Positions 6,901-26,941 of a stretch of DNA of 64,000 nt are shown in pieces. The notes below the pieces were generated by a model. The model was given only the letters and a program-made list of their open reading frames with translations, did no database searches and was not told where the DNA came from. How positions within the stretch are numbered: position 1 is the stretch's first letter; each line of letters begins with the position of its first letter. The position numbers and the translations under genes are program-made. Source of the DNA: an uncultured Candidatus Binatia bacterium (lineage in GTDB: Bacteria; Desulfobacterota; Binatia; Bin18); the NCBI GenBank assembly GCA_965200965.1, contig OZ241744.1:2816001-2880000 (forward strand), given 5' to 3'.

Positions 6901-9900
6901 GGGGGAACCTCGCAAATGCGCCAGCTCAAAGGGGGAGTCGCGGGTCTATCCCCGCGTGTGCGGGGGAACCGAGCTTACGCGCAAGCTGCACACGGATGTA
7001 ACCGGTCTATCCCCGCGTGTGCGGGGGAACCTGAGCGAAATTAAATCTGACCCGGGCGTGAAAAGGTCTATCCCCGCGTGTGCGGGGGAACCTAGGCGGT
7101 CCGCCGATGTGTGTCGCGTGAAACAGGTCTATCCCCGCGTGTGCGGGGGAACCGCATAACACTCTTTGCTATCAAAGACGTATCCCGGTCTATCCCCGCG
7201 TGTGCGGGGGAACCGCTGGAAGAGCTCTTCTGCTTGCGCCTTCGTGAGGTCTATCCCCGCGTGTGCGGGGGAACCAGGCAGAGGGTCATCCGGCAGTGCA
7301 GGCCTACGGGTCTATCCCCGCGTGTGCGGGGGAACCCCTGGAAGATGCCCTTCGGGTAGACATGAGCCGGGTCTATCCCCGCGTGTGCGGGGGAACCCGT
7401 GCTCTGAGTGCAAAGCCTCCGACTCCCGGGGGTCTATCCCCGCGTGTGCGGGGGAACCCGGGCGATCGATCGGCTCGAGCGCACCGAGTTTGGTCTATCC
7501 CCGCGTGTGCGGGGGAACCGATCATTGGCTTAGCCTTGGTAGGACGCTTAAAGGTCTATCCCCGCGTGTGCGGGGGAACCACGCTGAGCGAGGCGGCGCT
7601 GCGCCTCCTGGCGGGTCTATCCCCGCGTGTGCGGGGGAACCAGATCGATGCGTACCTCCAGGCCGTGGGGCGCGGGTCTATCCCCGCGTGTGCGGGGGAA
7701 CCATCTCGCCTATTCCGCAGAGAAAGGGCTCGAGCGGTCTATCCCCGCGTGTGCGGGGGAACCCGCGGGTACGGCGATCGTGATGCGAGCCGCGACGGTC
7801 TATCCCCGCGTGTGCGGGGGAACCATGACAGGCCGCCATTTGCGTTGCTTCATATTCGGTCTATCCCCGCGTGTGCGGGGGAACCTTTACCGCTGGGTCG
7901 ATACGGAAGCTCTCAAGAGGTCTATCCCCGCGTGTGCGGGGGAACCGAACAAATCCACGCCGCCCATGACGAGGAAGACGGTCTATCCCCGCGTGTGCGG
8001 GGGAACCTTGCCCGCGAGCTCTGCGACCCGGTCTATGCAAGGTCTATCCCCGCGTGTGCGGGGGAACCCGCGTCACTCCCAGCGTGGTGGCGGCGCAGCT
8101 CGGTCTATCCCCGCGTGTGCGGGGGAACCCGCTATGTTGATGTTCAACATTGGCTACGCGCGGGTCTATCCCCGCGTGTGCGGGGGAACCATCAACCAGG
8201 GCGGACAGCGCCAGCAGCTCATGGGTCTATCCCCGCGTGTGCGGGGGAACCCAGTACCAGGATGTCCCTGACTCTATGCGCCGGGGTCTATCCCCGCGTG
8301 TGCGGGGGAACCCCAAGAGGCGATCCGCCGTAACGTCCCAGATGGGTCTATCCCCGCGTGTGCGGGGGAACCTCTTCCAGCATGCACGGCAACGGGCCCG
8401 GGCCGGGTCTATCCCCGCGTGTGCGGGGGAACCACGGGGAGGCGCATGTGCGTTTGGCCTATCTGTGGTCTATCCCCGCGTGTGCGGGGGAACCGATCGG
8501 GCCGTGCTGGCCAAGTCTCGCATCCGGGGTCTATCCCCGCGTGTGCGGGGGAACCGCGCTCTGAGACTCCCCCTCGATATAATCCGGCGGTCTATCCCCG
8601 CGTGTGCGGGGGAACCTTGGGCGGTAGTCATGTTGAAACCCCTTTCAGGGGTCTATCCCCGCGTGTGCGGGGGAACCCAAAAGGGGGCTGTATGTATGAG
8701 TCATTCATGCGGTCTATCCCCGCGTGTGCGGGGGAACCGAATACCTGGCTAGCCTTTTTGGGGCTAGCTGCGGTCTATCCCCGCGTGTGCGGGGGAACCC
8801 GTGAGGCGCTTTCAAGCAATGGGGCTGACAAAGGTCTATCCCCGCGTGTGCGGGGGAACCTCAAGAAGACAGTCGTTCACGGCAAGCTGGTGGGGTCTAT
8901 CCCCGCGTGTGCGGGGGAACCCTTACGCCTGGAACAATACCACGGCGACAACCCGGTCTATCCCCGCGTGTGCGGGGGAACCTTGTTGATCTGCCTCTGA
9001 TGACTGAGCGCAAAAGGTCTATCCCCGCGTGTGCGGGGGAACCCCCGGCGCAGTCACCATGTACGGCACCCGGTACGGTCTATCCCCGCGTGTGCGGGGG
9101 AACCGGCTTCGGGTTGGTGTACAAGTTCCACAACTCAGGTCTATCCCCGCGTGTGCGGGGGAACCAGGATAGCCAGTGACGTACATGCACCACTGGCAGG
9201 TCTATCCCCGCGTGTGCGGGGGAACCCGCGGTTCTTCCCACGGAGCCGATGATCCGAACGGTCTATCCCCGCGTGTGCGGGGGAACCGCGTTGCGCCAAC
9301 GGATCAAGTACTTGATGACGGGTCTATCCCCGCGTGTGCGGGGGAACCCATCGCGATTTTTTGGCGCGTCGCCCTGCTCAGGGTCTATCCCCGCGTGTGC
9401 GGGGGAACCCGCGCCTCGCTCCTGCAGTTTTTTGTCCATGCTGGTCTATCCCCGCGTGTGCGGGGGAACCCCAGAGAGATTTTTTTTAGGGTCTTTAGGA
9501 AGGGGTCTATCCCCGCGTGTGCGGGGGAACCTACTGGCAGTACAATGATCCCCACGACAATCAGGGTCTATCCCCGCGTGTGCGGGGGAACCTTACCAGT
9601 ATTGGCGTCAGGATCGCGAAAGAAAGGTCTATCCCCGCGTGTGCGGGGGAACCAACCGACGGTAGAGGCCCAAATACACACCAGAGGGTCTATCCCCGCG
9701 TGTGCGGGGGAACCCATAGACTGCATAGCAGCGAGGCGAGCTTCATGGGTCTATCCCCGCGTGTGCGGGGGAACCGGATCCGCCAGCTGGGTGAGAAACG
9801 GCAAGATGGGTCTATCCCCGCGTGTGCGGGGGAACCCGCACCGGTCCCCGACCGAACTGGCGGCTGTACGGTCTATCCCCGCGTGTGCGGGGGAACCATA

Positions 9901-18832: not shown

Positions 18833-18834
18833 TG

Positions 18835-18862
18835 GGTCTATCCCTGCGTGTGCAGGGGAACC
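18835..18862 (-). repeat. Solo variant CRISPR repeat at the cas6e/cas1 junction
   Basis: GGTTCCCCTGCACACGCAGGGATAGACC is 26/28 identical to the array repeat; the two changes are a compensatory C-G to T-A pair in the stem. Confidence 0.92.
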
Positions 18863-21565: not shown

Positions 21566-22162
21566 TTAGTCTGTTGATTGCGGGGCATTGCGCCGCTCGG
21601 CCTGATAGTAGGTGCGGGCGATACCGCGGCGTGCTGCTTCGGCCTGTTTTTCGTTATAGCCATCGTTCAGGATGAAGAATGTCATTTCACGCCAGTTGAA
21701 GGGTTGGTTGGCAGCGGCCAACATGCGGAACAGCCGTGCCAGCAGAACACGCAGCATCGGCCCTCGTGCCGTCAGCAGTCGGTTCAGGCGTGTCTCGCTG
21801 TAGAAAGCGGCTGTCCGCCGGGCGTCACCGCCGAAGAACAACGCTCGGCCAACAGGCATCGATCCGTCGTGGGCGGAGCGTCGGTCAGCCGTGCCGGTCA
21901 TCAGCGCGATGCCGTGCAGGATGAGCGCCCATTTGCGTTCGAGGGTGGGGTTGCCCAACAGTTCCCGGTATGCCAGGAGCCGCCAGAAGGCCGCTGCATC
22001 GGGGGCGTCCGGGTCCATGCGCCGCAATTCGGCTAGATCGCCCCGGCGAAAATCGGGCTGTGATAGAACATGGGCAAAACCCGCCGCAATAGCGTCCCAA
22101 GTCTGCTGTTCGCCTTCCAGCGTCGGCGTAGCGGACGCTGGAAGAGGTTGCCTATGTGTCAT
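21566..22162 (-). CDS. cas11: Type I-E Cas11 (Cse2/CasB)
   Basis: GDLAELRR, SETRLNRLL, IARTYY; lies between cas8e and cas7. Confidence 0.88.
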   Translation of the reverse strand: MTHRQPLPASATPTLEGEQQTWDAIAAGFAHVLSQPDFRRGDLAELRRMDPDAPDAAAFWRLLAYRELLGNPTLERKWALILHGIALMTGTADRRSAHDGSMPVGRALFFGGDARRTAAFYSETRLNRLLTARGPMLRVLLARLFRMLAAANQPFNWREMTFFILNDGYNEKQAEAARRGIARTYYQAERRNAPQSTD

Positions 22163-23763
22163 TCCTGGTCCTCCTTATTCGCTTCGTCAAACAGAAACGG
22201 CAGTCCTTTCGGTCTACGGAGCCGCCCCTCAAACAGCCCCTCGGCCTTGACCCGGGCGCGGTAGCGGTGAATGGCCGGGCAGGGCAGGGTGGCGGTTGCG
22301 TCTTGCAGGATGCGGCGGGCGTGGTCAATCACGCCGTCTTTGCGGTTCATCAGCCACGCCTTTCGGATGCGCTTGCGTTTGTCGTCGTTGTCGGCCTCAA
22401 ACTCGGTTTGCAGGTCGTCAAAGAATCGGGCGTCAACGATTGCGTCCAGCCTGTCCGACCAGGGATTTGCCAGCGTGCGGTGCTCCGAGCTGGTCTTGTC
22501 ACCCTCACCGCGGGCGGCAAACGTTGCGATAGCGCGGCGCACGATGCTCTTCACAGTGCCAATCTGCTCAATACGCTCTTGGGCGAGGTCGCCCAATTCC
22601 TGAGCCTGTGCACTGTTGCGGCGCAGCATAGCTGTTCTGGCCTTGCTCCTGATGGGGATGATGCGTTCGTGATAGCCTTCGGTCATACCCTGCTTTCTGG
22701 TGTTGCATTTTAGACTTCGGGCGACGAGTTGCATCGTTTCCGGGGAATGCTGTTCAGACGGTGTTGGCTTCAGCAGGACCGGGTGTTCCCAGTCGGCCGA
22801 GATCAGGTATTTCTTCACCAGATCATAGGTAAAACCCTTTGGGCCGATATTGAGAGCTTCGCCCTTTGTCGTGTTGATGGGGGTCCACGGGTCGCCTGTA
22901 CGCCCTTTGATCTTCTCTGCCTCAATTCGTGTCGCGTCCGAGTTTGCCTTGAGGCCGCTGAGCTTGCCGTCCGTCCCGAGGCGCAGGCGGACACGCCGGC
23001 AGACCTCGATGTAGTAGGGGGCGAGTTCGACCAGCGGCAGTTTCTCCGCCTTGGTCCCATCCCAGGGGATGGTCCAGAGTAGGCCGATATCGCCATTGGT
23101 CAGAGAGAGATCATCCATCCGTTCCAGTAGGGCTATGATATCCCGCCGGGCGTGCGCACCCGGTCGTAGGGAGGGTGTGAGGCTGAACGCTGGGCGTCCA
23201 GAATAAGCGCTCTTGAGCCTAGAAACAGAGTAATTGCCACGACCGTTCTGAGCCGAGGTAGTTTGCAGGGTAATCAGCGCAAACAACCAAGCGTCTACGC
23301 TTGCCTCGGTCGCCACCTCCGATTTGAGGTCGTGGTTCTTGGACGTGACCAGCATATCCAACTTGTCTGGAGTTGGGAGAATGTTCTTTTTGTCCTCCTC
23401 GGCTCTCTCGTAGGTATCGGCCTTGTCTGCGGAGGCCGGCGGCTGCATGAAGGCCGGTTCTGTGATGTCATTCACCACTACCTGCCAGGGTTCGTCGTCT
23501 GGATAGTCCGGCGTCAGTCCACGGATCAGGGCCACCCACTCTGCCGCGTTCTCCGGTGGTTCACCGCGGCCGGCCCGGCGCAGTGCCATCACCCCGAGCT
23601 GGACGAGAAAGGCGTGCCAGGCGTGACGCTGGTGGGGGCGCAGTGCGGGAAAAGTGTTTACCTCGTCCTGCATCAGCGCAGCGAAGATCTCCGGCAAGGA
23701 GACCTCCACGCCCGCGCCTGCCGTATCCATCCGAATCAATGGTTCCGTGAGAATGTTGAGCAT
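22159..23763 (-). CDS. cas8e: Type I-E Cas8e (Cse1/CasA)
   Basis: MLNILTEPLI start, FPALRPHQ..WHAFLVQL, AFMQPP, EVCRRVRL, GDPWTP. Confidence 0.92.
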   Translation of the reverse strand: MLNILTEPLIRMDTAGAGVEVSLPEIFAALMQDEVNTFPALRPHQRHAWHAFLVQLGVMALRRAGRGEPPENAAEWVALIRGLTPDYPDDEPWQVVVNDITEPAFMQPPASADKADTYERAEEDKKNILPTPDKLDMLVTSKNHDLKSEVATEASVDAWLFALITLQTTSAQNGRGNYSVSRLKSAYSGRPAFSLTPSLRPGAHARRDIIALLERMDDLSLTNGDIGLLWTIPWDGTKAEKLPLVELAPYYIEVCRRVRLRLGTDGKLSGLKANSDATRIEAEKIKGRTGDPWTPINTTKGEALNIGPKGFTYDLVKKYLISADWEHPVLLKPTPSEQHSPETMQLVARSLKCNTRKQGMTEGYHERIIPIRSKARTAMLRRNSAQAQELGDLAQERIEQIGTVKSIVRRAIATFAARGEGDKTSSEHRTLANPWSDRLDAIVDARFFDDLQTEFEADNDDKRKRIRKAWLMNRKDGVIDHARRILQDATATLPCPAIHRYRARVKAEGLFEGRLRRPKGLPFLFDEANKEDQE

Positions 23764-23945
23764 ACGTCTGCTTTCCCTTTCAGTCGCTTCTGGTCAGAAG
23801 CGTGTCTGTTCTGTACCCTTACTCGCATCGCCCCGTATTGAGTCTGCAACGTCAGGGACGCAGGAGAGGGGAGGACAGCGCGAACAGCGGCAATATCCGG
23901 TATCACCATTTCCACCAGGGCTTCGGTAGCCTTGTTTTGTTTCAT
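23736..23945 (-). CDS. 69-aa ORF of unknown function between the promoter and cas8e
   Basis: Strong RBS (AAAGGAG-AAAAA-ATG) just downstream of a TTGACA promoter; no family recognised. Confidence 0.45.
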   Translation of the reverse strand: MKQNKATEALVEMVIPDIAAVRAVLPSPASLTLQTQYGAMRVRVQNRHASDQKRLKGKADVCSTFSRNH

Positions 23946-23973
23946 TTTTTCTCCTTTCTTTTAGACATAGACA

Positions 23974-24001
23974 TTGAAACACAAAAATTAGATGTTAGAC
24001 T
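23974..24001 (+). promoter_or_regulatory. Divergent promoter for the mini-array
   Basis: TTGAAA, 16-nt spacer, extended -10 TGtTAGACT, ~17 nt upstream of the first degenerate repeat. Confidence 0.5.
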
Positions 24002-24013
24002 TGGATTTGTCAA
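23985..24013 (-). promoter_or_regulatory. Sigma70-type promoter for the small ORF and Cascade genes
   Basis: TTGACA (24013-24008), 17-nt spacer, TAATTT (23990-23985), in an AT-rich gap. Confidence 0.75.
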
Positions 24014-24018
24014 GCTTT

Positions 24019-24101
24019 GATTCCCCGCACGGGGATAGACCGTTTTGTGTTGCGATGTCAAACATCGTGCTCAAATTTCCCCGCACACGCGGGGTTGTCC
24101 T
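24019..24101 (+). ncRNA. Mini-CRISPR / crRNA-like regulatory RNA (CreR/CreA-like)
   Basis: Degenerate repeat TTCCCCGCACGGGGATAGACCG, ~31-32 nt spacer, degenerate repeat TTTCCCCGCACACGCGGGGTTGTCC. The spacer matches 23986-23968 on the minus strand. Confidence 0.85.
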
Positions 24102-24127
24102 GTGGTGTCCGGGGCTGTGGCGGTCCA

Positions 24128-26941
24128 TTACATCCGACGCAGTCCCAGACGGTCGTATTGGAATCGGGCGTCACCGAGGCGGAAGGTGAAGCCGCCGGCG
24201 GTCAGCTCGGGCGCGACCGGCTCGTCGCTGGCCAAGTCACGCGCCAGATGGTTGGGAATGGCTATCTGGGAGATCGTTTCGCCGGTGAAAGGGCTGGACG
24301 GGGCCGGCTCTAACTCAACCGCTATGCCCTCATCGCCCAGCCGCGTGCGTATCTTCTCTTCCAGAGAGCCAAAAACCACGTCCTGGTTGTCCGTGAAAAA
24401 GGACTTATCGCGCCGGACGATGGCGCTCCGGGCGGTCAAGCCCTCGGCCAATTCCGCCCCCATCATGCTGTTGGCGTGATCCCGCCAAGCGTCGCCCAGC
24501 TCTGTGGTAATGGCTTCCAACGCCTCGGGGTGGGTCGTTCGTTCGACCAGCTCCCGGTTCATCTCCGGGATGCGCCACGGTCTGGCGTTCTCGGTATGCT
24601 CTACGATCAGCCGTCGCGTAGCCTCCAGGATGCGCAGGTCCTTATACACATGACCGTGCGGCCCCAAGCCGTTTCGGCCCGGCCCTTGAGGAGTGAACGT
24701 GTCATCAGATTGACCGGAAGGCGACACATTGACTCCTTTTGCCAGCAGGGGCGAGAGATCGGCACCCGCCGGCAGCAGCACGACGCAACTCGGCGTCTCA
24801 TAGCCGGGCGGGCGATCGTGCCGTTGGTGTCGGTGCAGGCGGCCAATTCGTTGAAGCAGTACGTCCATCGGGCACAGGTCGGTTATGAGCAGGTCGGCAT
24901 CAATATCGAGGGACTGCTCCAGGGTCTGGGTCCCCACAATAATGCGCCCGCCGGCCGGCCGGTCTTTGCCGAGTTGCTCTTCAACCGCTCTGTCGAGGTG
25001 GCGGCGGTCACTGGCGGCGAACCGGCCGTGGTGGAGGGTGGGAGTGCCGTTGCAGGCGTACAGCAGGCCGCGTTCGTCAGACAGGGCCGTTTTTTCCAGG
25101 GTCTGCTGGGTGTTGATCGCGTGGCCGACTGTGTTGCGAATGACCAGCACCTTCGCCCCGGTGCGGGCCGCGTGCAGGGCGCGTTCGGCCACCTGAGCGA
25201 AGTCATCCATAGCCGTGGCCTCAATCTGTACCGTTTTTTCTTTGCCAAAGATGAACCGTGTCGCCGTCCTCTCGTTCGGGTAAGACGATTTATCTTCATT
25301 GTGAGCGACGGCGATCATCTGTTCACCACCGCCGGCCTGGGTTGTGACCGCGGGGTAGGGGGCGGTGATGGTTTCACCGAGTGGCGGAAGGTCCTGCAAA
25401 CCGGATACCCAGCGACGACGTGCCACCGCACCTAGCGTGGCCGACATCAGCACCGCGTAGCCGCCGGCCCCGATATGGGCGTCAAGCAGAGCTTTGAGAA
25501 TGGCCCGCATATACGGGTCGGAGGCGTGGACTTCATCCACGACCAGCAGGTGACGCGCCAGGCAGGCGGCGCGCAGATGGGCGTGTTTCACCTTGAGGGC
25601 TGCCATCATGGCCTGGTCTACCGTGCCCACGGCAATTTGCGCTGCCAAGTAGCGCTTGGCGCTTTCGGCGGCCCAGCGGCGTTTTCCGGTGGCGACACCG
25701 GGATCATCGTCCCACCAGACCTCGTAGTTCGGCAACTGCCGACCCTCGGCGGTGCCGGCGCGCAGATAGCCGGGGACGGCTAACACCGGCTCCGGTCGGT
25801 GTTTGTTAGGGAACAGATTGGCAATGAAGCGCGTGACGCGCGCGTGCATCTGGCTGGCCGCGGCCCTGGTCGGCAGGGCAAAATACAGCCCGTCCACCAG
25901 TTCGGCCTGATACAGTTGGGCAAAGCGCCACAGGGCGGCCTCGGTTTTCCCAGAACCGGTTTCGGACTCGATGATGACCAGCCGCTCATCCGTCGGGACC
26001 GCCCTTACCACCTGCTGGACAGGGTTGGGCGTGGCATTGGGAAGGCTGAACAGCGGGCCGAAGTCGGGGAGAGCCGGCAAGGAGTGCGCGTGTCGCCTTC
26101 CGGTCGATCTGATGACATGTTCACTCCTCAGGGTGCGAAAAGCGGTCCGCTGACTTTTCAGGTTCAGCCCGATTTCCGAAACCGCCCGCTGGGCGTTTTG
26201 GCGCGCTGTGCTGATGTAGTTGTCGCGCGGCTCGGCGCAAAACGGAAAATTGCGCTCATCGGAGCCGATCCAGTCGGCCAGTATGCACAGGCCCAGAAAC
26301 ATATGCTGGAAGGCGGACGTGGACGGCAGGGGCGGCGCATCGGGACTGAAGGCCAACGGGAACCAGTGGCGCACGAGCTGGCTGATGCGCTCCACATGAC
26401 TTTTGGGGTGCAACTTGCCAAAGTCACGCCATACTTTGGGGTTGGGGTGTCGCACGCCTAGTTGCAGGGGCGAGCCGTGATGCGACAGCGCAGCGATGAA
26501 CAACCCGCACACGGTCTCGCCCTCGCCGGCGTCCCAACTCAGCAAATCATCCCACCAGCCCAGGGCGTCAAAGAACCAAGCGGATGTTGTCGCATCAGTG
26601 CCATTCAGGACCGGCGTCAGGTCGGCGATGTGACCGGCGCGATGTGGCATTTTCTTGTCCGCTGGCGCGTCCGCGGGCTGCCAGATCTGCGTCTGAAAGC
26701 CGATGTTGACCTTACCGATGTCGTGGAGGGCGGCAAAGACGGCCAGCCGCGCCGCGGTTGCGTCGTCCAGCCTGTCCAGCCCGCCGGCCCGCGCCAGGCC
26801 TTGCCCGATGGTCGGCTGCTCCAGCAGGGCCTTAAAGCAGACCCCCACATCGGCCATGTGGTGCTCTAACAGATGGATACGCTGTGGGTTTTCTCGGTCC
26901 GATTTTGCCCAGAAGGCCCGGGTGTAGGCTGTGGCTGTCAT
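24128..26941 (-). CDS. cas3: Cas3 HD nuclease/helicase
   Basis: FWAKS, HDIGK, LADWIGS, ETGSGKTE, DEVH, MSATL, QSLDIDAD, QRIGRLHRH. Confidence 0.98.
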   Translation of the reverse strand: MTATAYTRAFWAKSDRENPQRIHLLEHHMADVGVCFKALLEQPTIGQGLARAGGLDRLDDATAARLAVFAALHDIGKVNIGFQTQIWQPADAPADKKMPHRAGHIADLTPVLNGTDATTSAWFFDALGWWDDLLSWDAGEGETVCGLFIAALSHHGSPLQLGVRHPNPKVWRDFGKLHPKSHVERISQLVRHWFPLAFSPDAPPLPSTSAFQHMFLGLCILADWIGSDERNFPFCAEPRDNYISTARQNAQRAVSEIGLNLKSQRTAFRTLRSEHVIRSTGRRHAHSLPALPDFGPLFSLPNATPNPVQQVVRAVPTDERLVIIESETGSGKTEAALWRFAQLYQAELVDGLYFALPTRAAASQMHARVTRFIANLFPNKHRPEPVLAVPGYLRAGTAEGRQLPNYEVWWDDDPGVATGKRRWAAESAKRYLAAQIAVGTVDQAMMAALKVKHAHLRAACLARHLLVVDEVHASDPYMRAILKALLDAHIGAGGYAVLMSATLGAVARRRWVSGLQDLPPLGETITAPYPAVTTQAGGGEQMIAVAHNEDKSSYPNERTATRFIFGKEKTVQIEATAMDDFAQVAERALHAARTGAKVLVIRNTVGHAINTQQTLEKTALSDERGLLYACNGTPTLHHGRFAASDRRHLDRAVEEQLGKDRPAGGRIIVGTQTLEQSLDIDADLLITDLCPMDVLLQRIGRLHRHQRHDRPPGYETPSCVVLLPAGADLSPLLAKGVNVSPSGQSDDTFTPQGPGRNGLGPHGHVYKDLRILEATRRLIVEHTENARPWRIPEMNRELVERTTHPEALEAITTELGDAWRDHANSMMGAELAEGLTARSAIVRRDKSFFTDNQDVVFGSLEEKIRTRLGDEGIAVELEPAPSSPFTGETISQIAIPNHLARDLASDEPVAPELTAGGFTFRLGDARFQYDRLGLRRM
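24689..24737. repeat. 49-bp palindromic element, in frame in cas3
   Basis: AGGAGTGAACGTGTC...GACACATTGACTCCT; related copies at 26080, 61462 and 62620. Confidence 0.85.
25248..25296. repeat. Diverged 49-bp palindromic element, in frame in cas3
   Basis: AAGATGAA...TTTATCTT inverted ends and GTGTCGCC core; ~29/49 ungapped identity to the 61462 copy. Confidence 0.55.
26080..26128. repeat. 49-bp palindromic element, in frame in cas3
   Basis: AGGAGTGCGCGTGTCGCCTTCCGG...GACATGTTCACTCCT; opposite orientation to the 24689 copy. Confidence 0.85.

Follow-up and report, generated by a model that had tools for sequence, protein, structure and literature searches.

Liu et al. (bioRxiv 10.1101/2023.03.10.532045) define CreR and show that the type I-E CreR of Salmonella represses P_casA 8.6-fold in Escherichia coli, a repression that is relieved both by extra CRISPR RNAs (crRNAs) and by AcrIE8, and Shmakov et al. 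(PMC10120712) find mini-arrays in 19% of 3741 I-E loci. The typical mini-array in the latter survey lies between cas3 and cas8, opposite to cas3, and has targets in the cas8 promoter that are flanked by a protospacer-adjacent motif (PAM) and carry sixth-position mismatches. Experimental demonstration of the mechanism exists for an I-F1 mini-array and, in E. coli, for the I-E CreR of Salmonella. CreTA and CrePA (bioRxiv 10.1101/2024.01.05.574328; PMC8501985), with CreT and CreP described in types I-B and I-F but not in I-E, likewise use a crRNA-like guide from two degenerate repeats; this guide partially matches a promoter that separates cas3 from the first effector gene and has a small gene directly behind it. 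Here we analyze a window, that is, a whole stretch of 64,000 nucleotides (nt), from an uncultured Candidatus Binatia bacterium (contig OZ241744.1, positions 2,816,001 to 2,880,000), in which a type I-E locus carries an element of this kind between cas3 and cas8e. Judging from its sequence, this element (24016-24102) is likely a CreR-type degenerate mini-CRISPR whose RNA would park Cascade, without cutting, on the Cascade promoter 57 base pairs (bp) away. The CreR mechanism is already published, and the window element adds one more case.

A preliminary description of the window had reported two degenerate repeats between cas3 and cas8e, the first with the 8-nt handle of the array repeat and the second with its full hairpin, and the sequence bears this out. 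The parts of the mini-array, its target and the associated promoters are the following.

24016-24042, plus strand: PsiR1, the degenerate first repeat, with a hairpin shortened in the 24022-24035 region and an intact 8-nt 5' handle, ATAGACCG, at 24035-24042
24043-24073, plus strand: pseudo-spacer (guide) of 31 nt; bases 1-19 match the promoter site and bases 11-16 pair with bases 20-25
24074-24102, plus strand: PsiR2, the second repeat, with the Cas6e-type hairpin kept and the 3' part degenerate
24035-24094, plus strand: predicted mature CreR-like RNA of 60 nt (handle, guide, 3' hairpin), its ends placed by the known Cas6e cleavage rule
23968-23986, minus strand: protospacer-like target, identical to the guide at 16/19 positions and at 15/16 of the Cascade-paired positions
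23987-23989, minus strand: AAT at the PAM position (non-target strand), inside the -10 hexamer
23985-24013, minus strand: predicted Cascade-operon promoter, TTGACA (24013-24008), 17 nt, TAATTT (23990-23985), with the start expected near 23978
23974-24001, plus strand: promoter-like site for the mini-array, TTGAAA (23974-79), 16 nt, TAGACT (23996-24001), with TG before the -10; a match to consensus only

The mini-array lies in the 182-bp gap between cas3 and an open reading frame (ORF) for 69 amino acids that precedes cas8e, and begins 25 nt past the cas3 stop codon on the opposite strand. The PsiR1 handle ATAGACCG equals that of the array repeat exactly, and no stretch is better conserved than the handle block GGGGATAG.CC in an alignment of mini-arrays from nine loci, in all of which the first repeat keeps the handle and the second keeps the hairpin. 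The stem of PsiR1 is formed by CCCC (24023-26) and GGGG (24031-34) around a loop 4 nt shorter than that of the array repeat, and PsiR1 folds at -8.5 kcal/mol versus -16.2 for the array repeat. PsiR2 differs from the array repeat at 8 of 29 positions, its hairpin CCCCGC-ACAC-GCGGGG (24079-24094) being identical and its 3' part reading TTGTCCTG where the array repeat has ATAGACCN. The predicted 60-nt RNA folds at -21.2 kcal/mol (z -2.7). An Rfam search of 23700-24300 at E<=1 gave no match, and a scan of the organism's own genome for further ectopic repeats returned only the array, a repeat at the cas6e/cas1 junction and chance matches.

The match between guide and promoter is as first described: bases 1-19 of the guide agree with minus-strand 23986-23968 at 16/19, the exceptions being positions 10, 12 and 18, and the AAT lies within the -10 of a TTGACA-17-TAATTT promoter. 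From guide start to target start the separation is 57 bp rather than the 60-70 bp given earlier. Only base 10 counts as a true mismatch, as bases 12 and 18 would be flipped out in Cascade. Among 332 seed-perfect sites (positions 1-5 and 7-8) on both strands of the 3.62-Mb genome, the target ranks first once the self match is set aside, the runner-up sites reaching 14/19, and none of 2000 shuffled guides equaled it within 1.2 kb on both strands. Similarity is limited to guide bases 1-19 and the flanks are unlike; local duplication was rejected as an origin for the match because the similarity ends exactly at the guide borders.

The PAM can also be considered from the side of the CRISPR array. 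The array repeat consists of GGTTCCCCCGCACACGCGGGGATAGACC followed by a variable 29th base, with which each 33-nt array unit begins (C 82, T 70, G 65 and A 6 over 223 units), and in type I-E systems the last repeat base is brought in from the PAM at spacer acquisition, so the third PAM base appears to be free in this system. This freedom, together with the AAN found at all 14 targets described below, suggests that AAT may be an acceptable PAM.

The Salmonella enterica I-E CreR is also a degenerate mini-CRISPR in the cas3-casA/cas8e gap, with a PsiR1 handle and a PsiR2 hairpin, a PAM-proximal partial match to the promoter and no recognized toxin. The two differ in that the Salmonella match runs over 15 consecutive nt next to AAG and lies about 140 bp upstream of casA, whereas the match in the window comprises 9+9 nt around one mismatch next to AAT and overlaps the -10 and start region about 40 bp upstream of the first ORF. 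The window also differs in its repeat family, its host phylum, the small ORF before cas8e and the self-complementarity of its pseudo-spacer, and repression has been measured for the Salmonella CreR whereas for the window we infer it from sequence. The regulatory I-E and I-F1 mini-arrays of PMC10120712 share with the window the position in the cas3-cas8 gap opposite to cas3, a seed adjoining the better-conserved repeat, and a PAM-flanked cas8-promoter target with sixth-position mismatches. We also re-read the corresponding gap of E. coli K-12, which has the handle ATAAACCG and, as its best site, AAG followed by 13/15 paired positions; that site lies on the mini-array's own strand about 130 bp upstream, whereas the site in the window lies on the cas-sense strand, 57 bp away and in the core promoter.

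Strong evidence comes from relatives. We read the DNA upstream of cas8e in 48 other Cas8e loci, taken from the 40 nearest genomes (7 loci), further genome contigs (2), 400 genomes of the same class (25) and 98 genomes of the class of locus L010 (14). A mini-array of this repeat family was present in 15 of the 48, antisense to cas8e every time; the detection motif is specific to this family, so that mini-arrays built on other repeats may be missed in the distant loci L032-L048, and L066, which has two perfect repeats, was excluded from the count as ambiguous. In 13 of the 15, the best guide match within the roughly 1.2-1.4 kb searched falls on the cas-sense strand, 56-104 nt from the handle, and these 13 loci, each with a homologous mini-array and its own target, span two bacterial classes. 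Shuffled guides reached the observed score in 0/1000-2000 cases for seven loci, in 7/1000 for one, and in 43-63/1000-2000 for five that have shorter matches. No target was found for the mini-arrays of L047 (shuffles 1652/2000) and L076 (746/1000), both of them decayed loci in which the mini-array adjoins a truncated cas8e. These two were dropped from the covariation counts, which therefore cover 14 loci (13 relatives and the window); counting the window, a guide-target pair is kept in 14 of 16 mini-array loci.

The preliminary description had named covariation of guide and promoter across homologues as a check on RNA-guided autorepression of Cascade, and such covariation is what the 14 loci display, through 11 distinct seeds (positions 1-11). 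The PAM position reads AAN in every target (AAT in seven, AAC in four, AAG in two and AAA in one). Guide and target agree in 14/14 loci at positions 1, 2, 5 and 11, despite two to four different letters being in use there, and in 12-13/14 at positions 7-10, where the letters likewise vary. Mismatches concentrate at guide positions 6, 12 and 18: at positions 6 and 12, 24 of 28 cells are mismatched, versus 8 of 154 at the other positions from 1 to 13 (Fisher test, 3e-19, the loci being kin and not independent), and guide bases 20-31 never match the target. When eight guides were compared with eight targets, each guide fitted its own target at 9-11/11 paired positions and the targets of other loci at 3-8, except for the sister pairs window/L002 and L026/L030, which cross-match at 9-11/11. 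The targets are also placed consistently with respect to promoters. A TTGAC[A/C/G] hexamer occurs 27-55 nt upstream of the protospacer start in 13/14 loci, so that the target begins in the -10 when the distance is 27-30 nt, at the start site when it is 34-37 nt and 15-20 nt past that site when it is 50-55 nt; in the remaining locus, L011, the target overlaps a -35 instead. The presence of a PAM, a seed and 5-nt pairing segments separated by an unpaired sixth base is what selection for Cascade binding predicts at the level of sequence, and the unmatched bases 20-31 would fit selection against full-length pairing. Taken together, the promoter matches with AAN in 14/14 loci, the covariation and the mismatches at 6/12/18 support the core of the earlier proposal, in which Cascade would repress its own synthesis under RNA guidance. 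The comparison amounts to a clean natural experiment in which guide and promoter co-evolve behind an AAN and only the flipped-out bases are free to mismatch. A pattern scan of metagenomes for the handle plus TTGACAAAT returned 10 loci, six of them ordinary arrays with the motif in a spacer and four of them chance matches, with no mini-array among them.

The following course of events can be proposed for the window. The mini-array would be transcribed from a promoter that is divergent from, and overlaps, that of Cascade, and Cas6e would cleave both repeats to give the RNA of about 60 nt (24035-24094), which would be loaded into Cascade. The loaded complex would read the AAT PAM and form an R-loop across guide bases 1-19, and this R-loop, lying over the -10 to about +10, would by its geometry block RNA polymerase. 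With guide bases 20-31 unpaired, the R-loop presumably could not lock and Cas3 would not be recruited, as published partial matches behave in this way. The outcome would be negative feedback on the small ORF, cas8e, cse2, cas7, cas5, cas6e and probably cas1 and cas2, with derepression, by analogy with the published CreR, whenever Cascade is titrated by an anti-CRISPR or by the 223 canonical crRNAs. The mini-array may itself come under this feedback, as the preliminary description had proposed from an overlapping -35. In favor of that part, one consensus-level promoter match was found on the plus strand (TTGAAA-16-TAGACT, 9/12 matches; one site found versus 0.3 expected), and its -35 does fall inside the protospacer, but antisense promoters recovered under the same criteria were confined to 3/8 loci scanned, at differing positions. 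A comparable circuit is said to operate in Streptococcus pyogenes, where tracr-L reportedly (Workman and colleagues, 2021) turns Cas9 into a repressor of its own promoter. There, as in the window, a natural non-canonical guide with a short match would direct the effector to its own promoter; that system differs in belonging to class 2, in using a single protein and in having a tracrRNA-derived guide without a repeat-spacer-repeat unit.

Several observations weigh against a CreR-type function of the mini-array. The -10 of the proposed Cascade promoter is weak, and because it has only 3/6 consensus letters, a simple promoter scan omitted the minus-strand TTGACA-17-TAATTT. The AAT is not the canonical E. 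coli PAM, AAG, and a search of a phage collection with the whole array gave no protospacer match from which the PAM could be defined directly. With a hairpin of only 4-5 bp in PsiR1, it is uncertain whether Cas6e would cut at the 5' end. The mini-arrays share common descent, so that the 14 loci are not 14 independent events and the P value overstates their independence; in particular, the mismatch at position 12 (guide G in 12/14) is largely inherited because the mini-arrays have one ancestor. The independent evidence is the covariation at the paired positions of guide and target. Finally, the block holding seed, PsiR1, promoter and target has been replaced in close strains, as described below.

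The known CreR model leaves unexplained the self-complementary pseudo-spacers, the small ORF, the block replacement and a tRNA-like gene in some relatives. The leads worth following are accordingly the 'cargo slot' behind the targeted promoter (small ORF, tRNA-like gene), the self-complementary pseudo-spacers and the swapping of seed and promoter as a block. The slot contains the following genes in the window and in relatives.

23736-23945, minus strand: ORF of 69 amino acids (aa) that has GGAG as its ribosome-binding site, comes first after the targeted promoter and overlaps the start of cas8e by 28 nt
L027:1213-1428, L010:1234-1455, L064:1217-1429, L067:1241-1429 and L002:3049-3189: members of the same small ORF family
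L063:3331-3414, minus strand: tRNA-like gene of 84 nt, directly after the protospacer and before cas8e
L065:1264-1347, plus strand: the same tRNA-like gene, in the same place
L069:1243-1326, plus strand: the same tRNA-like gene, in the same place

The frame of the 69-aa ORF is kept in four strain variants despite indels. Its product has no Pfam, NCBIfam or Atlas match, and only four near-identical homologues were found among proteins of similar length. The family is 60-73 aa long with the common motif A.V.A...P..(S/V)(L/V)(T/S).(Q/R/I/S)T; the same-slot homologues in L027, L010, L064 and L067 are 14-33% identical to the window's, and in L002 the homologue is fused in frame as an N-terminal extension of Cas8e. 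The predicted complex of Cas8e with the small protein scored 0.02, the fold of the partner being uncertain, and so speaks neither for nor against an interaction. Other slots hold other genes. In L026 (-960..-167 from cas8e) and L047, a gene with the N-terminus MTKYRMYVDESGN lies between the CreR target and cas8e; from its YVDESGN-type N-terminus, it is putatively DUF3800-like. L011 has a Cys-rich Zn-ribbon ORF in the slot and L030 a 58-aa coiled-coil ORF.

The tRNA-like gene occurs in three Chloroflexota-class relatives (3/98 genomes of the class), without exception within the I-E locus. Built on a tRNA-Leu body with a long variable arm, it lacks an encoded CCA, and its nearest paralogues in the same genomes are tRNA-Leu(CAG), 73% identical, and tRNA-Leu(TAG). 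The anticodon loop is shifted, reading TCAGGAG or TCTGGAG (C33) versus TTCAGGG in the genuine gene, and ARAGORN calls Pro(AGG) or Pro(TGG). Apart from the first anticodon base and one T-stem base, identity among the three copies is 99-100%. On these features, the gene is a candidate for a Cascade-repressed, mis-decoding tRNA, and a literature search at the level of titles on CreT with tRNA-Leu or mistranslation found no such gene described.

These genes raise the idea, which we regard as unlikely, that the circuit would exist for the sake of the first product of the targeted promoter, small protein or mis-decoding tRNA, rather than for the cas genes. If it were so, and if the products harmed cells that lose Cascade or in which an anti-CRISPR blocks it, type I-E would have its first CreTA-like guard, a mistranslating tRNA would be a new class of toxin, and the self-complementary pseudo-spacer would tune how easily canonical crRNAs displace the guard RNA. 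A guard of the CreTA/CrePA kind, in which the guide chiefly restrains a harmful product of the 69-aa ORF, loss of Cascade leads to growth arrest and control of the cas genes is secondary, would account for the presence, first in line behind the target, of a conserved small ORF that belongs to no known family and has a strong ribosome-binding site, and for the variety of cargo among relatives (putative DUF3800-like, Zn-ribbon and coiled-coil ORFs, and the tRNA-Leu-like gene in three loci); mini-array-controlled cargo and toxin genes are also described in the literature. We nevertheless consider such a guard quite improbable for the window. The in-frame fusion to Cas8e in L002 is hard to reconcile with a toxin and is a difference from CreTA and CrePA, in which CreA guides the repression of one; in L008, the slot has no ORF, yet the guide-target pair is kept; and the 69-aa ORF has neither a membrane segment nor a known toxin domain.

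The replaced block bears on whether the mini-array functions at all. In close-strain contigs that span the locus, window positions 23912-24063 are replaced by 111 letters (X3, X6 and X9) or 133 letters (X11) that cannot be aligned with them, between flanks that are 96-100% identical (the cas3 end 97-100%, the small ORF/cas8e start about 95-96%). Inside the block lie the start of the small ORF, the target, the promoters, PsiR1 and guide bases 1-21. Since guide seed and target both sit in it, they would be swapped as one cassette, and since it is replaced in close strains, the element is not fixed within the species. Such replacement, the degeneracy of both repeats, the two mini-arrays without a target (L047 and L076) and the sporadic origin of stand-alone repeats, noted by Shmakov et al. 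(PMC10120712), would be expected of an inert remnant, either a scrap of a decaying array or a recombination scar, that resembles the promoter by chance or through local duplication. We hold this to be very unlikely, because a remnant should not have its best match in the genome only 57 bp away, nor should 14 loci pair through 11 seeds with AAN and on the same strand every time, with mismatches rare where Cascade pairs (8/154) and frequent at the unpaired sixth positions (24/28). The confinement of the similarity to guide bases 1-19, with the flanks excluded, is also unlike a duplication.

A CreR-type function likewise has no need of self-complementarity in the pseudo-spacer, which is nevertheless widespread. 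The pseudo-spacer of the window forms an internal hairpin at 24053-24067 on the plus strand, and self-complementary pseudo-spacers are also present in L002, L008, L010, L011, L026, L027, L030, L047, L063-L065 and L069. The stem joins bases ~10-16 to bases ~20-27, with additional pairing between the seed and the 3' end in some loci. A perfect stem of at least 5 bp (loop 3-7) was found in 7/9 of the first mini-arrays versus 30/223 canonical spacers, and each of the nine pseudo-spacers folds better than shuffled versions of itself (individual p 0.009-0.08; combined over five lineages, Fisher 4e-4). Between the L026 group and L010, the stem has undergone a compensatory change from T-A to C-G; in L067 and L074 it is absent. 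Neither the mini-array preprints searched nor a wider literature search, as far as the accessible text of either extends, mentions a spacer hairpin or self-complementarity. An intrinsic terminator was considered for the spacer hairpin and rejected, as there is no U-tract on either strand.

An antisense or convergent element, in which a three-hairpin unit would be transcribed into the cas3 3' end to control cas3 by collision or antisense pairing, or to stabilize that end, with the guide match secondary, would suit a unit that begins on the opposite strand 25 nt beyond the cas3 stop, three palindromic hairpins that form on either strand and the pairing within the pseudo-spacer, but is highly improbable because it leaves unexplained the conserved handle, the PAM, the seed covariation and the sixth-position mismatches, because the mini-array of L011 does not adjoin cas3, and because none of the hairpins has a U-tract behind it on either strand.

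The mini-array is set in a complete type I-E system, whose main components are listed here together with a further repeat in the operon.

Minus strand, complete type I-E system: cas3, cas8e, cse2, cas7, cas5, cas6e, cas1e, cas2e and an array of 224 repeats
24128-26941, minus strand: cas3 (HD domain and helicase)
22159-23763, minus strand: cas8e (cse1), followed by cse2, cas7, cas5, cas6e, cas1e, cas2e and the array
18834-18862, minus strand: solitary full-length repeat at the cas6e/cas1 junction, in crRNA orientation, with 3 mismatches to the array repeat
17583-3953, minus strand: CRISPR array of 224 repeats

The Cse1 model of NCBIfam aligns to Cas8e over its full length and scores 48.3 bits (E 7e-13), below the curated cut-off of 70.05. 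Two of the three mismatches in the solitary repeat form a compensatory change of a stem pair from C-G to U-A. This repeat encodes the last eight residues of Cas6e, the stop codon TAG lies in its handle and the GTG start of cas1 follows 2 nt further on. A Cas6e cut in it would detach cas1-cas2 from the Cascade message, and the stop codon of cas6e would be lost. The solitary repeat had been counted together with the mini-array as giving two repeat-based control layers in one operon, a weaker proposal than the core one; the repeat itself is real, but no counterpart was found in 2.1-kb stretches from 10 relatives. In two further loci, L057 and L058 (G105 and G014), the stretch taken for the cas6e/cas1 junction contains the beginning of a CRISPR array, some 4 kb downstream of the end of cas8e.

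The host lineage is uncultured and GC-rich, and run records place it in sponge metagenomes; from this lineage, the window contributes a well-documented case of a degenerate mini-CRISPR that would autoregulate Cascade. The array is unusually large, with 224 repeats and 221 unique spacers, and includes four perfect self-matching spacers, and holding Cascade down plausibly limits both cost and autoimmunity. The four spacers in question (minus-strand units at 9442, 7491, 6575 and 4746) match their own chromosome at 33/33 positions, at genome sites 222867, 3130262, 1890485 and 2069142, where the flanks CAA, TCA, CAA and CCT are all non-AAN. Three of the four make up half of the six units whose first base is A.

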